Origin: a bacterium
Lineage (GTDB): Bacteria > UBA8248
DNA: 64,000 nt
Assembly (NCBI GenBank): GCA_965221165.1
Contig: CBDCRP010000002.1
Span: 352,001-416,000, forward strand
Reading direction: 5' to 3'
Shown here piece after piece: positions 4,618 through 33,238 of the stretch. A program made the position numbers and the translations under genes. Position 1 is the first letter of the stretch; every line of letters starts with the position of its first letter. Below the pieces are notes generated by a model. The model was not told the origin of the DNA. It did not search any database and saw only the letters and a list, made by a program, of their open reading frames with translations.

Positions 4618-4720
4618 CTCCCTCTGGTAAAGTCATTCAGAAATGATGTCGAGAGATTTTGAAGCCTCACGCGAAAAAATTCCATAAGAGACTATCGCTA
4701 ATTTGAAAAGAGGATGGCCC

Positions 4721-5062
4721 GTGGAACATATCAAAAGACACGTTTTCGTCTGCATCAACCAACGCCCACCGAATCATCCCATGGGCTGTTGCCAGAGCAA
4801 GGGCAGCATCGAAGTCGCACAAGCGATTACGGAGGCGATTGGCTCGAATGACGACCTCGCTGCGGATACGGCCATGGCAGGCGCGACTTGCCTGGGTCCG
4901 TGCACGATGGGTCCCACCCTAGTCGTCTACCCGGAGGGCGTCTGGTACACGGGCGTGAAGGTAGAGGACGTTCCTGAACTCATAGAGGAACACCTGAGAA
5001 ACGGTCGCCCGGTCGAGAGACTGCGGTTAAGGCTGCCCGGAAACGTCGAAAACAACGATTAG
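4721..5062 (+). CDS. Thioredoxin-like [2Fe-2S] ferredoxin
   Basis: HVFVC...GCC...CLGPC..GP..VVYPEGVWY; GTG start after AGGA. Confidence 0.9.
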   Translation: MEHIKRHVFVCINQRPPNHPMGCCQSKGSIEVAQAITEAIGSNDDLAADTAMAGATCLGPCTMGPTLVVYPEGVWYTGVKVEDVPELIEEHLRNGRPVERLRLRLPGNVENND

Positions 5063-5083: not shown

Positions 5084-5356
5084 ATGAGCCGTGGGCTGGT
5101 GATGCACTCGAAAGACAATGTTGCCACCGTGCTGGAGGACATCGCCTCCGAGCAAAATGTGGAAATCGAAGGTGGTGGGGAAATTTTGATGATTTACGCG
5201 ACGGAAGCGATTCCTTTTGGCCACAAAATCGCACTGCGAAAGATATCCTCAAGCGGAAAAGTACTCAAATACGGCGAGGTCATCGGCACCGCCACGCAAA
5301 ACATATCCGCCGGTAGCCACGTTCACGTTCACAACATCAAGAGCACCAGAGGCTAG
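5084..5356 (+). CDS. UxaA-family dehydratase small (SAF domain) subunit
   Basis: DNVATV, IPFGHKIAL, KYGEVIG, HVHVHN. Confidence 0.9.
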   Translation: MSRGLVMHSKDNVATVLEDIASEQNVEIEGGGEILMIYATEAIPFGHKIALRKISSSGKVLKYGEVIGTATQNISAGSHVHVHNIKSTRG

Positions 5357-5358
5357 GC

Positions 5359-6537
5359 ATGCCCAGAAAAAGGGGCACCCCTACTTTTTGGGGCTACAGA
5401 AGGCCCGAGGGTCCTCCGGGCGGCCGGAATCATCTCGCCATTATCAGCGGGATGGACAATTCAAACCCTATTGTCCGTAGAATCGGCTCACTGGTACGAG
5501 ACGCCACCCCCGTCAACACATCGTTCGGACGCGCTCTGATGGGTGAGGACGAGGAACAGCATTGGCGGGTAATGGGGCACACCGCCGCGCACCCCAACGT
5601 AGGGGCAGCCATTATCGTGAGCTTAGAACCCAAGAGTGCCAACGCCATTGCGGAAGTAGCCACGAGAACATCCCCCTGGATGCCCATAGAGGCTGTGAAC
5701 ATCCAGGAAATCGGGGGCACGCTCAGCACCACCTCTCATGTCGTGGAACTCGCCACAAAACTTTCTGCCCACCTCGCATCCGCCAAGCGGGTTCGCTGTG
5801 AGTTGGGAGAACTCACCATCGGGGCCGAATGCGGGGGTTCTGATACGACCAGCGGCGTCATTTCGAACCCCGTGACGGGAATGGTCGCCGATAAGGTCGT
5901 AGAGGCGGGGGGATCGGTCATCTTCTCCGAGACACTGGAAATTGTGGGGGCCGAGCATCTTCTCGCCCGCCGGGCCGCAGACAGAAAAACGGCGCAGAGA
6001 ATCATCGCTTCCGCCAAAAGCGCCGTTGATTACGCCGAAAGCATCGGCGTCGACTTCATCGGCTCGAATCCGGCGCCCGATAACATCCGGGGCGGTCTTT
6101 CATCCATTGAGGAAAAAAGCCTGGGAGCCATCAAAAAAGCGGGCAGCCATCCCATCGTCGAGGTCGTTGGCGTGGGCGAGCGCCCCTCGAAAAAAGGCAC
6201 CATCTTCGCCGACGCTCCTTGCGCAGGCGTAGAAAACATATCTTCGCTCGCGGCCAGCGGAGCGCAAGCGATTATTTTCTCGACCGGCATCGGCAATCCG
6301 ATCGGTCATCCCATTTCCCCCACCATCAAGGTGACCGGAAATCCCCGAACCGCCCGGACGATGGCCGAGAACATCGATGTGGACATCAGCGGCGTCATGG
6401 AAGGGACGATGCGCATCGATGAAGCGAGGGATTTGCTCGAAAAAGAACTAATCGCGGTGATGAGTGGAAAACTCACGACATCAGAGCTTTTGGGAGAGAC
6501 CGAACTCACGGTCAGCCGGGCCGCATTAAGCCTCTAA
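5359..6537 (+). CDS. UxaA-family dehydratase/lyase large subunit (altronate dehydratase/SuyB-like)
   Basis: HPNVGA, ECGGSDTTSG, GGLSSIEEKSLGAIKKAG, FSTG.GNP. Confidence 0.88.
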   Translation: MPRKRGTPTFWGYRRPEGPPGGRNHLAIISGMDNSNPIVRRIGSLVRDATPVNTSFGRALMGEDEEQHWRVMGHTAAHPNVGAAIIVSLEPKSANAIAEVATRTSPWMPIEAVNIQEIGGTLSTTSHVVELATKLSAHLASAKRVRCELGELTIGAECGGSDTTSGVISNPVTGMVADKVVEAGGSVIFSETLEIVGAEHLLARRAADRKTAQRIIASAKSAVDYAESIGVDFIGSNPAPDNIRGGLSSIEEKSLGAIKKAGSHPIVEVVGVGERPSKKGTIFADAPCAGVENISSLAASGAQAIIFSTGIGNPIGHPISPTIKVTGNPRTARTMAENIDVDISGVMEGTMRIDEARDLLEKELIAVMSGKLTTSELLGETELTVSRAALSL

Positions 6538-6583: not shown

Positions 6584-7096
6584 TTAAAAACCCATCCCCA
6601 CGATGAGCCGATTCCAGGCGTTGATGAGCGCGATGGCGCCGAGAAGTTCCACTATCTGCGCTTCTGAATAGTGCGCCTTGAGCGCCTCAAAAGTCTCATC
6701 GGAAACACTCACCCCCTGTGTGCTTTCCTCACAAAGGCGCAGCGCCGCTTTTTCTGGATCATTGAAGAGGTCGCTCGAGGAACCCTCTTGCGCGGCTTTT
6801 GTCTTCTCATCACCCACCTTGTGCATCCTTGCCATGTTTGAATGCATGTTCGTGCAAAAATGGCACCCGTTGAGCACCGATGCGCGAATGTTCAGGATTT
6901 CCTTGAAACCTATGTCGATCTCTCCCGGGCCATCCGCCACCGTGGTCAAGCTCAATAAAGATCGCAAGAAATCCGGTTTATGGGCCAAGGCCTTCACCGG
7001 TGGAATCACGACGCCGAATTGTTTTTTCAAATTCTCCATGATGCGTTTTGCGGACGCTTCCGCCTGTTCGGGCTCTAACTGGGAAATCCGTGCCAT
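6584..7096 (-). CDS. Carboxymuconolactone decarboxylase/AhpD-like protein
   Basis: SVLNGCHFCTNMH (CxxC..H), INAWNR. Confidence 0.85.
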   Translation of the reverse strand: MARISQLEPEQAEASAKRIMENLKKQFGVVIPPVKALAHKPDFLRSLLSLTTVADGPGEIDIGFKEILNIRASVLNGCHFCTNMHSNMARMHKVGDEKTKAAQEGSSSDLFNDPEKAALRLCEESTQGVSVSDETFEALKAHYSEAQIVELLGAIALINAWNRLIVGMGF

Positions 7097-7330
7097 TCCA
7101 TGCTCCTTAGATTGATTCGTCGGGGTGGATGCTTGCGCACGAGAGATACGCTCATTCCACCGATATTTACGTCACCTCGAGGGTACCGGTCAATGAATAC
7201 TCCAAAACCACCCCGCATACCGCTATAAACTCTAATGAGCGGAAGCACAAAACATCTTCTTTTGTTAAACTATACTCCTGTGAATTTCCTGTTTTCTGCG
7301 GCATTCGCCTTAAACGAATGGATGAACCCT

Positions 7331-8158
7331 ATGGACAAGCAAATTTCTTTACGAGAAGCCGCTTCCCTCATCGAGGATGGAGATGCGATTAGTCCCGGCG
7401 GCACTCTTCTGCACAGGACTCCTGCCGCCCTCGTGCGCGAAATCGCGCGCGCAGGCACCCGGCGTCTAACGCTCATCAAGCCTTCCCCCGGCTATGACGC
7501 CGACCTCCTTTGCGCCGCAGGCGCCGTCGAGAGGGTCATCAGCGGTATCGTCACATTCGAGGCGGAATTCGGATTAGCGCCCCAATATCGAAAGGTGATT
7601 GAGAAAGGGTTGACCGGCCTCACCGAACACGCCTGAGCCAGCGTTCTCGCTGGGCTGCGGGCCGCAGCCTACGGCATCCCTTTTCAGCCCATTCGTGGAT
7701 TCACGGGGAGCGACATTCCGGAGCAAAGCGGTATTTTCACGATTGAAGACCCGTACACGAAAGAGGAACTCTACGCGATTCCCGCCCTCAAACCGGACTG
7801 GGCATTGATTCACGTTCAAAAATCAGACGCGCAGGGAAACGCCCAAATTCTGGGCAACCAGCAGTTTGACGTTGAAATGACGCGCGCGGCGCAAAAAGGG
7901 GTCATTCTCACAACCGAGAAAATCGTTGACCCCGAAGAACTCGCAGCGGAACCCGAGAGAACCACCATACCGGGTTTTCTCGTCAAAGCGGTCGTGGAAA
8001 CGCCGGGAGGGGCGTCTCCTTGCAGTTGCCATCCATACTACGGGGTCGATAAGGATGAAATGGGTCGTTACCTGGCCCTGACCCAAAGCAAGGATGGACT
8101 TGGGGAATATCTTGCCGGTACCGACCAGACACACACGCAAGACGCGTTGAGAAGATAG
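7331..8158 (+). CDS. Family I CoA-transferase-like alpha subunit with in-frame TGA (predicted selenocysteine at codon 102)
   Basis: ORFs 7235-7636 and 7805-8158 share a frame. After TGA 7634-7636 the frame continues without a stop as ASVLAGLRAAAYGIPFQP...DPYT...AIPALKPDWALIHVQKSD..GNA, which are family-typical motifs. Confidence 0.85.
7651..7671 (+). promoter_or_regulatory. Candidate bacterial SECIS hairpin
   Basis: TGGGCTGCG-GGC-CGCAGCCTA: 9-bp stem, G-starting loop, stem begins 15 nt after the UGA. Confidence 0.65.
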
Positions 8159-8160
8159 CG

Positions 8161-8913
8161 ATGGGCAATCGCCTGGCTTCGTTGCCTGAACACGTCATCC
8201 GCGCCGGAAACCAGATGGTCGTCACGCTGTCGCACCTCATCGAAGATGGTGACAAAGTGTTTCACGGGGTCAACTCTCCGCTTCCGATGGTTGCGATTTT
8301 TTTGGCCAAAAAACGACACGCGCCCAACTGCATGCTCATAGAAGTCGCGGGTTCCGTGGACCCGAAACCACGCTTCATGCCGAATAGCACGGCCGACCCC
8401 GAACTCTGCCACGGCGCGGCTTCAATGTTCTACAACCCGGACATGTACGATCTTTTTGCACGTGGAGAGATGGACCTCGCTTTTCTGGGCGCCGCCCAAC
8501 TCGATAAGCAAGGACGAGCCAACATGAGCTATATCGGCGACCCGTTTCACCCGAAAGTCAGGCTCCCCGGTGGAGGGGGAGGCTCCGTCATCATGCCCCA
8601 GGTGAAACGAACGGTTATTTGGCGAACGGTGCACGACAGGCGATTTCTCGTGCCGAGGGTCGATTTTTCGACGCAATCCGGAAATCTGAGCCACGTGGTG
8701 ACATCCATCGCCTTGTTTGAAAAAAAATCGACAGGGCTCGAACTCGCCAGCGTTCACGCGGGTCATTCGATGGATGAAGTGGTCGAGAAAACCGGATTTG
8801 ATTTGCATCGCCCGAACGTTGTCGCGCAAACGCCCCTGCCGAGCGCCGATGAACTAAGCGCTTTGGAGGAACTCGACCCGGATGGCGTGCGCTTTTCAGA
8901 ATTTCGTGTATAA
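8161..8913 (+). CDS. Family I CoA-transferase-like beta subunit (GctB/IpdB-like)
   Basis: FLGAAQLD..G.AN, RLPGGGG, HDRRF...VDF; starts 2 nt after the alpha-subunit stop. Confidence 0.88.
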   Translation: MGNRLASLPEHVIRAGNQMVVTLSHLIEDGDKVFHGVNSPLPMVAIFLAKKRHAPNCMLIEVAGSVDPKPRFMPNSTADPELCHGAASMFYNPDMYDLFARGEMDLAFLGAAQLDKQGRANMSYIGDPFHPKVRLPGGGGGSVIMPQVKRTVIWRTVHDRRFLVPRVDFSTQSGNLSHVVTSIALFEKKSTGLELASVHAGHSMDEVVEKTGFDLHRPNVVAQTPLPSADELSALEELDPDGVRFSEFRV

Positions 8914-8995: not shown

Positions 8996-9640
8996 TTGAT
9001 GAGCAGTGAATTGATGAATCGTTTGAAAAACTATTCTGCCTGCCAGGCGGCGGACGCCTTCGATAAATTAAATATCAGAGGCCACATGCCCGACATCATC
9101 CTGTTGTCCCCCGACCCGGATTACCGAATGGTGGGCGAGGCCCATACCGTTCGGATGGTTCCCGCCGGCGGCGGCGCTCTGCCCAAACGCGAGGCCCACC
9201 ATATCGACGCGGCGCCCGGGGGGAGCATCGTCGTCATCAGCATCCCCTCTGGGGTGACGACGGCCAACTGGGGCGGGATGATGAGCACGCGGGCGAAAAT
9301 GATGAACCTGGGCGGAGTCGTCCTGGACGGCAGAGCCAGGGATATCGAAGAACACCGCCAGATGGGATACCCCGTGTTCGCCAGAGGGGTGTCTGTTCAC
9401 GGCAGCGGCGGATATACGGTTCCCATCAGCGTGGGAGAACCGATCAATTGCGGGGGCGTCGCGGTAAGGCAGGGAGACGTCATTCTGGGAGACGTCAACG
9501 GTGTGGTCGTCATCCCCAGGGAAAGGCTCGAGGAAGTCATCGATAAAATGGATGAATTGGCGAAAATTGAAGAAAAAATCATCTCTGAGTTGGAAAAAGG
9601 CGCGAGCATCGGCGAGACGTTCGCCAAGTATCGAGGCTAG
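8996..9640 (+). CDS. RraA family / HMG-CHA aldolase-like protein
   Basis: ADAFD, WGGMMS, DGRARD, GDVILGDVNGVVVIP. Confidence 0.88.
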   Translation: MMSSELMNRLKNYSACQAADAFDKLNIRGHMPDIILLSPDPDYRMVGEAHTVRMVPAGGGALPKREAHHIDAAPGGSIVVISIPSGVTTANWGGMMSTRAKMMNLGGVVLDGRARDIEEHRQMGYPVFARGVSVHGSGGYTVPISVGEPINCGGVAVRQGDVILGDVNGVVVIPRERLEEVIDKMDELAKIEEKIISELEKGASIGETFAKYRG

Positions 9641-33152: not shown

Positions 33153-33238
33153 TGGTACCCGGGGCCGGACTCGAACCGGCACGGCCTCTCGGCCAAGGGA
33201 TTTTAAGTCCCTAGTGTCTACCATTCCACCACCCGGGC
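33153..33238 (-). tRNA. tRNA-Leu (TAA)
   Basis: GCCCGGGTGGTGGAATGGTAGACAC..GACTTAAAATC..long variable arm..GGTTCGAGTCC..ACCA. Confidence 0.95.

Follow-up and report, generated by a model that had tools for sequence, protein, structure and literature searches.

The subject of this analysis is a gene at positions 7331-8158 of a 64,000-nucleotide stretch of bacterial DNA (GTDB lineage UBA8248; GenBank assembly GCA_965221165.1, contig CBDCRP010000002.1, positions 352,001 to 416,000 of the forward strand), referred to here in its whole length as the window. The gene is predicted to encode the alpha subunit of an enzyme with a coenzyme A (CoA)-transferase fold, and it carries an in-frame UGA codon that is predicted to be read as selenocysteine (Sec, U). 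It is followed by genes for a beta subunit and a RraA-like protein, and a divergent gene for an AhpD-like protein lies upstream (Table 1).

Reading frame and in-frame TGA

The forward strand holds a single frame between 7331 and 8158, and its sole internal stop is the TGA at 7634-7636. Read as Sec, this codon gives a protein of 275 residues with U102 in the context ..GLTEHA-U-ASVLAGLRAAAYGIPFQP.., while calling of open reading frames (ORFs) with translation table 11 divides the frame into 7235..7636 and 7805..8158 and leaves the 56 codons between them uncalled. The Pfam model CoA_trans (PF01144) matches residues 6-223 of the protein, across the TGA, with an E value of 2.4e-22. The first-pass annotation, made from the letters of the window and a list of its ORFs, had taken the two ORFs to be one frame broken only by this TGA and the 56 uncalled codons to be typical of the family. 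The frame and the Pfam match that spans the TGA bear out the first claim. The second agrees with the same match, which runs across these codons, and with their conservation as protein in the presence of synonymous variation.

Conservation of the TGA and pairing with cysteine

A protein database search returned full-length homologues with 44-57% identity that have Cys at the U102 column, as well as many calls of 157-171 residues that start just past this column, one of which is named 'hypothetical protein'. Such short calls are the signature of genes that have been cut at the TGA. One Cys-type homologue (P0087) is assigned by one source to the cultured Paralcaligenes ureilyticus. In 41 related genomes searched in six frames, 23 places have exactly one TGA within the match, at 67-100% identity; they lie in 22 genomes, namely the window's own (G000), 20 of 22 others from the same genus and one of the two other genera in the family. 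A stop-free paralogue (47-53% identity) is present in 21 of these 22 genomes and absent from G017. A further 25 loci came from the species-genome collection, with titles that refer to Nitrospinota, Nitrospinaceae and Candidatus Tectomicrobia metagenome-assembled genomes (MAGs).

Of 44 loci (L025-L068), 43 have TGA at the column and one (L067, 55% identity) has TGC. These loci reduce to 27 distinct orthologue gene sequences from Nitrospinota and Tectomicrobia, with 63-91% identity, all of which have TGA, and a sequencing error, which the first-pass annotation had named as a possible cause, is thereby ruled out. A scan of metagenome contigs gave 80 loci, with TGA in 67 and TGC or TGT in 13 genes; these proportions are not frequencies, because the query was an alignment of short forms and favours those with TGA. 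One locus (L073) holds both a TGA gene and a Cys-codon gene, and one of the 80 was unmatched to the pattern. Family-typical sequence lies upstream of each TGA in the metagenome loci, which fall into at least seven sequence subfamilies.

In comparisons of the window with eight orthologues, third codon positions differ more often than first and second ones, by a factor of 2.3 to 8.6, before the TGA as well as after it, a pattern which indicates that purifying selection is acting on both stretches of codons. Pairing of Cys with TGA across homologues, which the first-pass annotation had proposed to look for, was also found: within the clade the column holds Cys or TGA and never Trp, Arg or Gly, and among remoter relatives E, N, S, Q and G occur.

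A conserved hairpin downstream of the TGA

A candidate selenocysteine insertion sequence (SECIS), a hairpin with a stem of seven base pairs (bp), begins 15 nucleotides past the UGA. Across 27 orthologues, codon entropy in stretches of eight codons falls to its minimum for the gene at codons 107-115 (0.27-0.33, the mean over the gene being 0.93). The hairpin 7652-7658/7664-7670 is formed by codons 108-114 (Gly, Leu, Arg, Ala, Ala, Ala, Tyr), which are near-invariant in their nucleotides.

We gathered 80 distinct 60-nucleotide segments from downstream of the TGA and aligned 65 of them, omitting 15 from the 'MTLV' subfamily. The 7652-7670 helix is paired in 97.4% of 455 cells of this alignment, as opposed to 37-61% when the partner is slid by one to three columns, and none of 500 shuffles matched its pairing or its covariation score. 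The stem contains one covarying pair (C-G in 37 sequences, A-U in 17, unpaired in 11), two pairs that vary on one side and four that are invariant, and the middle three bases of the loop (GGC, alignment columns 27-29) are the same in 65/65. In the 15 'MTLV' segments the 3' arm comes three bases earlier and closes a four-base loop, with all seven pairs formed in eight segments, six in one and five in six. Ten distinct Cys-form genes encoding the same or similar residues served as a control and had a mean of 3.9 of seven positions paired. The poor pairing of these genes implies that the protein sequence alone does not bring the hairpin about.

The first-pass annotation had proposed two SECIS-like hairpins at this site, one of 9 bp at 7651-7671 and one of 6 bp at 7638-7653. 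The first is present in the window sequence, where outer and inner extra pairs (7651/7671 and 7659/7663) are possible, and comparison supports the 7-bp stem 7652-7670 within it. The second can also be folded in the window sequence, and it was rejected as a conserved element: its helix is 60.5% paired in the 65 sequences, and 498/500 shuffles do equally well.

The covarying pair, 7655/7667, belongs to codons 109 and 113 (7655-7657 and 7667-7669), and its two states correspond to Leu109/Ala113 and Met109/Ser113 in the protein (loci L078-L088, L099-L141). In the REFS-U-VGVM-type subfamily this pair is mismatched (C-U or U-U). Coupled amino-acid changes at residues 109 and 113 that are forced by the hairpin would make a clear case of RNA structure shaping protein sequence.

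Selenocysteine machinery of the genome

A search for selA, selB, selC and selD, suggested at first pass, found all four in the genome above their cut-offs. The selA gene (564.2 bits) adjoins selB (383.8 bits), and the tRNA-Sec (75.9 bits, anticodon TCA; G000:C2:1080614-1080710) is also called as tRNA-SeC by ARAGORN. The selD gene (329.8 bits; G000:C2:975065-976027, corresponding to L019:1450-2520 on the reverse strand) has an in-frame TGA of its own, which gives U29 in the context ..KAGGUGSK.. and offers a positive control for Sec decoding from within this genome. Within the window, a segment at 33153-33238 (reverse strand) scored 40.2 bits as a tRNA-Sec, below the cut-off, and was rejected as an ordinary tRNA-Leu with anticodon TAA.

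Fold of the alpha subunit and position of residue 102

Against sequences in the PDB, the alpha protein matched AibA, IpdA and GctA with E values of 1e-31 to 4e-28, and none of the NCBIfam models reached its cut-off. The AlphaFold model built on the alignment had a mean predicted local distance difference test score (pLDDT) of 94.8 and a predicted template modelling score (pTM) of 0.92. Foldseek aligned this model with IpdA and GctA (1POI_A) at a template modelling (TM) score of 0.89 and with AibA at 0.85. Residue 102 opens a helix (102-114) right after a strand (96-99). E99 and several other acidic or basic residues of the alpha subunit are invariant across 58 Sec and 24 Cys forms.

The U102 column aligns with E in IpdA structures 6CON and 6CO6, A in 6COJ, Q in GctA and G in AibA, and is ungapped in single-sequence and profile alignments. 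The PDB title of 6COJ reads 'Rhodococcus jostii RHA1 IpdAB E105A COCHEA-CoA complex'. The presence of A at this column in the E105A variant and of E in 6CO6 and 6CON places Sec102 at the position of IpdA Glu105. This glutamate was reportedly proposed as catalytic by Crowe and colleagues in 2018.

Beta subunit

A beta gene lies downstream of the alpha gene at every locus that extends far enough. In addition to its best PDB match, AibB, the beta subunit of the window matches GctB (1POI) with an E value of 2e-21. According to a passage in PMC7756340, AibB has Cys56 in place of the catalytic Glu that is conserved in glutaconate CoA-transferases. The Cys56 column, which varies among five AibB crystal variants, aligns with Val62 of the beta subunit, so that the catalytic Glu of family I CoA-transferases is not present at this column, which was placed through AibB Cys56 and not by direct alignment with 1POI_B. 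Among 13 aligned beta subunits the column holds V, I or L in 12 and G in the archaeal L069. The adjoining residue, Glu61, occurs only in the clade of the window, with N, S or T elsewhere among the 13 (V in L069). In a Candidatus Tectomicrobia MAG (L061:1626-2230) the beta gene is spread over two frames (tblastn pieces 1-54 and 94-250), a frameshift or an assembly error.

Distribution of Sec and Cys forms

A quick maximum-likelihood tree of 85 rows, with sampling biased toward Sec forms, places 58 Sec and 13 Cys forms in one clade with 99% support in the Shimodaira-Hasegawa-like approximate likelihood ratio test (SH-aLRT), with Cys forms below it. Parsimony counts four changes between the Sec and Cys states, of which at least two are forced by well-supported branches. 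The window sequence belongs to a 13-row clade of Sec forms only (100% support). At three loci a Sec-type alpha/beta pair is directly followed by a Cys-type alpha paralogue (L073:1189-3226, L074:849-2613, G023:C378:33778-36163). Nearly all genomes of the window's genus have a Cys-type paralogue elsewhere, for example G000:C2:1220247-1221023.

Interpretation of the TGA and of residue 102

The conserved TGA, its pairing with Cys, the hairpin and the Sec machinery together support the 275-residue protein with Sec102 that had been put forward at first pass. On this comparative evidence it is very probable that 7331-8158 encodes a real selenoprotein in which UGA is recoded to Sec. The best explanation overall, which we consider likely with good confidence, is an intact selenoprotein gene that places Sec102 in an acyl-CoA enzyme with a CoA-transferase fold.

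In such a system, SelB and tRNA-Sec would decode the UGA at 7634-7636 as Sec under the direction of the hairpin 7652-7670, and the alpha and beta (8161-8913) proteins would assemble into an enzyme of two subunits that is folded like family I CoA-transferases. Judging from the alignment, Sec102 probably stands at a catalytic position, where it (or Cys in relatives) may serve as nucleophile or acid/base toward the acyl moiety of a CoA thioester at the interface of alpha and beta. The reaction would be hydrolytic, lyase or decarboxylase chemistry, as in IpdAB (a retro-Claisen hydrolase) and AibAB (a decarboxylase). Since the classical Glu of the beta subunit is lacking at the aligned column, the glutamyl-CoA route of CoA transfer is probably not used; for non-transferase chemistry on acyl-CoA as such, we see about even chances. 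A more specific proposal, which we offer tentatively and hold to be rather doubtful, is a Sec/Cys class of the CoA-transferase superfamily in which a selenolate or thiolate of the alpha subunit has replaced the Glu of the beta subunit and acts on acyl-CoA by a covalent, non-redox mechanism (with a selenoester, Michael or retro-Claisen adduct). If true, these enzymes would be among very few non-redox selenoenzymes and would be widespread in soil, freshwater and marine bacteria.

Several observations speak against parts of this interpretation. The reading of UGA as Sec comes from comparison and not from experiment. The folding energy of the hairpin region as a single sequence is ordinary (z -1.3; 23/200 shuffles fold equally well), so that by thermodynamics the hairpins are no more than chance, and comparison decides. 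A scan of 7560-7760 against Rfam with E values up to 10 gave no family match, and the covariation is that of a single pair, which is mismatched in 11/65 sequences. The role of Glu105 is taken from a PDB title and from the reported proposal of 2018, and the catalytic role of Sec102 is drawn from alignment to one enzyme, IpdA, with GctA and AibA having Q and G at the column. Glu61 of the beta subunit could leave room for a shifted transferase mechanism in the clade of the window. A shared neighbourhood was sought across subfamilies, and the neighbourhoods differ and point to no substrate.

The main functional rival is a redox role for Sec102, in which it would pass through a selenenyl-sulfide/selenenic cycle and be re-reduced by the AhpD-like CxxC protein encoded next to it. 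The divergent CMD/AhpD gene, with its CHFC motif, accompanies the alpha gene in the clade down to 63% alpha identity, and the prokaryotic selenoproteins in review tables (PMC13188914, PMC9312934) mostly show redox motifs. However, the alpha subunit has no second universal Cys (C61 is present in 49/58 and C233 in 39/58 Sec forms), no Cys is invariant among the 13 beta subunits, and no AhpD-like gene accompanies alpha in the other subfamilies examined. Acyl-CoA chemistry is also what the fold and the IpdA residue aligned with Sec102 suggest, and we regard the redox role as unlikely.

Readthrough of the UGA without Sec, by near-cognate decoding (as Trp, Cys or Arg) or a changed genetic code, would account equally well for conservation of the frame past the TGA and has no specific support. 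TGA is otherwise a normal stop in the window, where it terminates 29/61 open frames of at least 250 codons. Relatives carry Cys, the usual partner of Sec, the conserved hairpin is specific to TGA forms, and the genome has complete Sec machinery and a Sec-containing SelD, all of which makes such readthrough very improbable. Termination at the UGA, giving a split gene (a 101-residue N-terminal product and a C-terminal one with a start of its own) or truncation as a form of regulation, is slightly more improbable still. Many assemblies have been called in this way, and the short database calls start past the column, but their start codons differ among subfamilies and the window has no further in-frame ATG, GTG or TTG before 7805, 56 codons on. 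Moreover, the 56 intervening codons are conserved as protein: codons 115, 117 and 119 each use two to four synonymous codons for a residue that is invariant in 27/27. A nonsense pseudogene or assembly error, suggested by a single in-frame stop in a MAG with 8.47% estimated contamination, we judge to be refuted by the same TGA in 27 distinct orthologue sequences and 67 metagenome loci, by purifying selection on both halves and, as a weak check, by contigs from four public runs that span the TGA and leave 7634-7636 unchanged among the differences listed.

Comparison with known systems

An intact selenoprotein gene of this kind can be set beside four known systems. IpdAB is the COCHEA-CoA ring-cleaving hydrolase of steroid catabolism. 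Its structures (PDB 6CO6, 6CO9 and 6COJ from Rhodococcus jostii RHA1; 6CON from Mycobacterium tuberculosis) share the two-subunit fold with the window proteins, with profile E values of 1e-64 to 1e-66 besides the TM score given above. The residue mutated in 6COJ falls on the Sec102 column, and the two have in common an acidic residue three positions earlier (E99 in the window alpha). They differ in having Glu105 in IpdA and Sec or Cys here, at an identity of about 30%, and the neighbours in the window (AhpD-, RraA-, SAF/UxaA-like, RlpA and DUF255 genes) include no genes for steroid ring C/D catabolism.

AibA/AibB, the 3-methylglutaconyl-CoA decarboxylase of Myxococcus xanthus (PDB 5MZW-5N03), is the best match by sequence (E values of 1e-31 for alpha and 3e-34 for beta). 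It likewise has a CoA-transferase fold without the catalytic Glu of the beta subunit, and AibAB does not transfer CoA, as stated in part of PMC7756340. In contrast, AibA has Gly at the Sec column, and AibB has Cys56 where the window has Val62. GctAB from Acidaminococcus fermentans (PDB 1POI), the prototype of this branch of family I, has CoA_trans in both subunits and matches the alpha protein with a TM score of 0.89 and an E value of 4e-28 and the beta protein with 2e-21. It differs in having Gln at the Sec column and, with AibB Cys56 as the link between the two, a catalytic Glu in its beta subunit where the window has Val62.

With other genes for SelB- and SECIS-dependent selenoproteins, such as the genome's own selD, the alpha gene shares a UGA at a Cys column, a hairpin 15 nucleotides on with a G-rich loop, and selABCD. 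It differs in its family, as the CoA-transferase fold is not in the selenoprotein lists searched, which include the tables of a 2026 review. In those tables CoA appears only in CoA-disulfide reductase, the acetyl-CoA synthase gamma subunit and a crotonase-family protein. No CoA-transferase selenoprotein was found in the full-text literature or by term searches of the main texts of selenoproteome papers (PMC2398784, PMC1794560, PMC5029168, PMC13188914, PMC13326102, PMC12013277, PMC9312934), their supplements being outside the scope, and within that literature the first-pass claim of a fold that is not among the classical selenoenzymes holds.

A selenoprotein at this locus would add to the prokaryotic selenoproteome a family whose fold has not been linked with selenium. 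It would place Sec where a related enzyme has a catalytic carboxylate, outside a thiol-redox motif, and would join IpdAB and AibAB as the third way in which a CoA-transferase fold manages without the Glu of the beta subunit. Nature provides both Sec and Cys forms, interspersed on the tree, which makes the use of selenium outside redox chemistry directly testable in this family. Gene callers cut such genes in two, and recognition of the Sec codon would mend the annotation of a widespread enzyme.

Gene neighbourhood

The features of the locus are listed in Table 1. The gene order of the clade (divergent AhpD-like, alpha, beta, RraA-like) is kept down to 63% alpha identity. The genes for the SAF-domain and UxaA-like proteins are present in orthologue loci with 82-91% identity that reach far enough upstream and absent from those with 63-73%. 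A gene for RlpA is also among the neighbours.

Table 1. Features at the candidate selenoprotein locus, in window coordinates.
Feature	Position	Strand	Basis or remark
Small ORF with thioredoxin-like [2Fe-2S] ferredoxin matches below cut-off	4703-5062	+	Flanks the cluster
SAF-domain small ORF	5084-5356	+	Pfam SAF; neighbour within the genus only
UxaA/GarD-type dehydratase C-terminal protein	5359-6537	+	Pfam GD_AH_C / GD_AH_second; neighbour within the genus only
AhpD/CMD-family protein, C-H-F-C motif, divergent	6584..7096	-	Pfam CMD; conserved neighbour in the clade
Alpha subunit, GctA/IpdA/AibA-type CoA-transferase fold, 275 residues, predicted Sec102	7331..8158	+	Frame, Pfam, PDB matches, model
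UGA as predicted Sec codon (U102)	7634..7636	+	Column is TGA in orthologues and most metagenome loci; aligns with R. jostii IpdA E105
Candidate bacterial SECIS hairpin	7652..7670	+	7-bp stem 7652-7658/7664-7670, apical loop 7659-7663 (GGGCC)
Beta subunit (CoA_trans), Val62 at the classical catalytic Glu column	8161..8913	+	Pfam CoA_trans 19-209; best PDB match AibB, E 3e-34
RraA-like protein (class II aldolase / oxaloacetate decarboxylase family)	8996..9640	+	Pfam RraA-like, E 1e-31; follows beta in the clade
DUF255/thioredoxin-domain protein, 690 residues	10441-12513	-	Flanks the cluster

The AhpD-like protein (6584-7096) matched the NCBIfam model 'YciW-related (seleno)protein' with an E value of 1.9e-24, below the cut-off, and is the Cys form (CHFC) of a family that has Sec members elsewhere. 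In the other subfamilies examined, the beta gene is the sole common neighbour; genes found nearby encode a luciferase-like monooxygenase, a 4Fe-4S protein, an ABC ATPase, a glycogen phosphorylase and a zinc alcohol dehydrogenase. A gene for a TctC-type receptor of tricarboxylate transporters lies divergently upstream in both of two 'MTLV' loci (L125:58-1068 and L146:135-1148, reverse strand), which hints at a carboxylate substrate.

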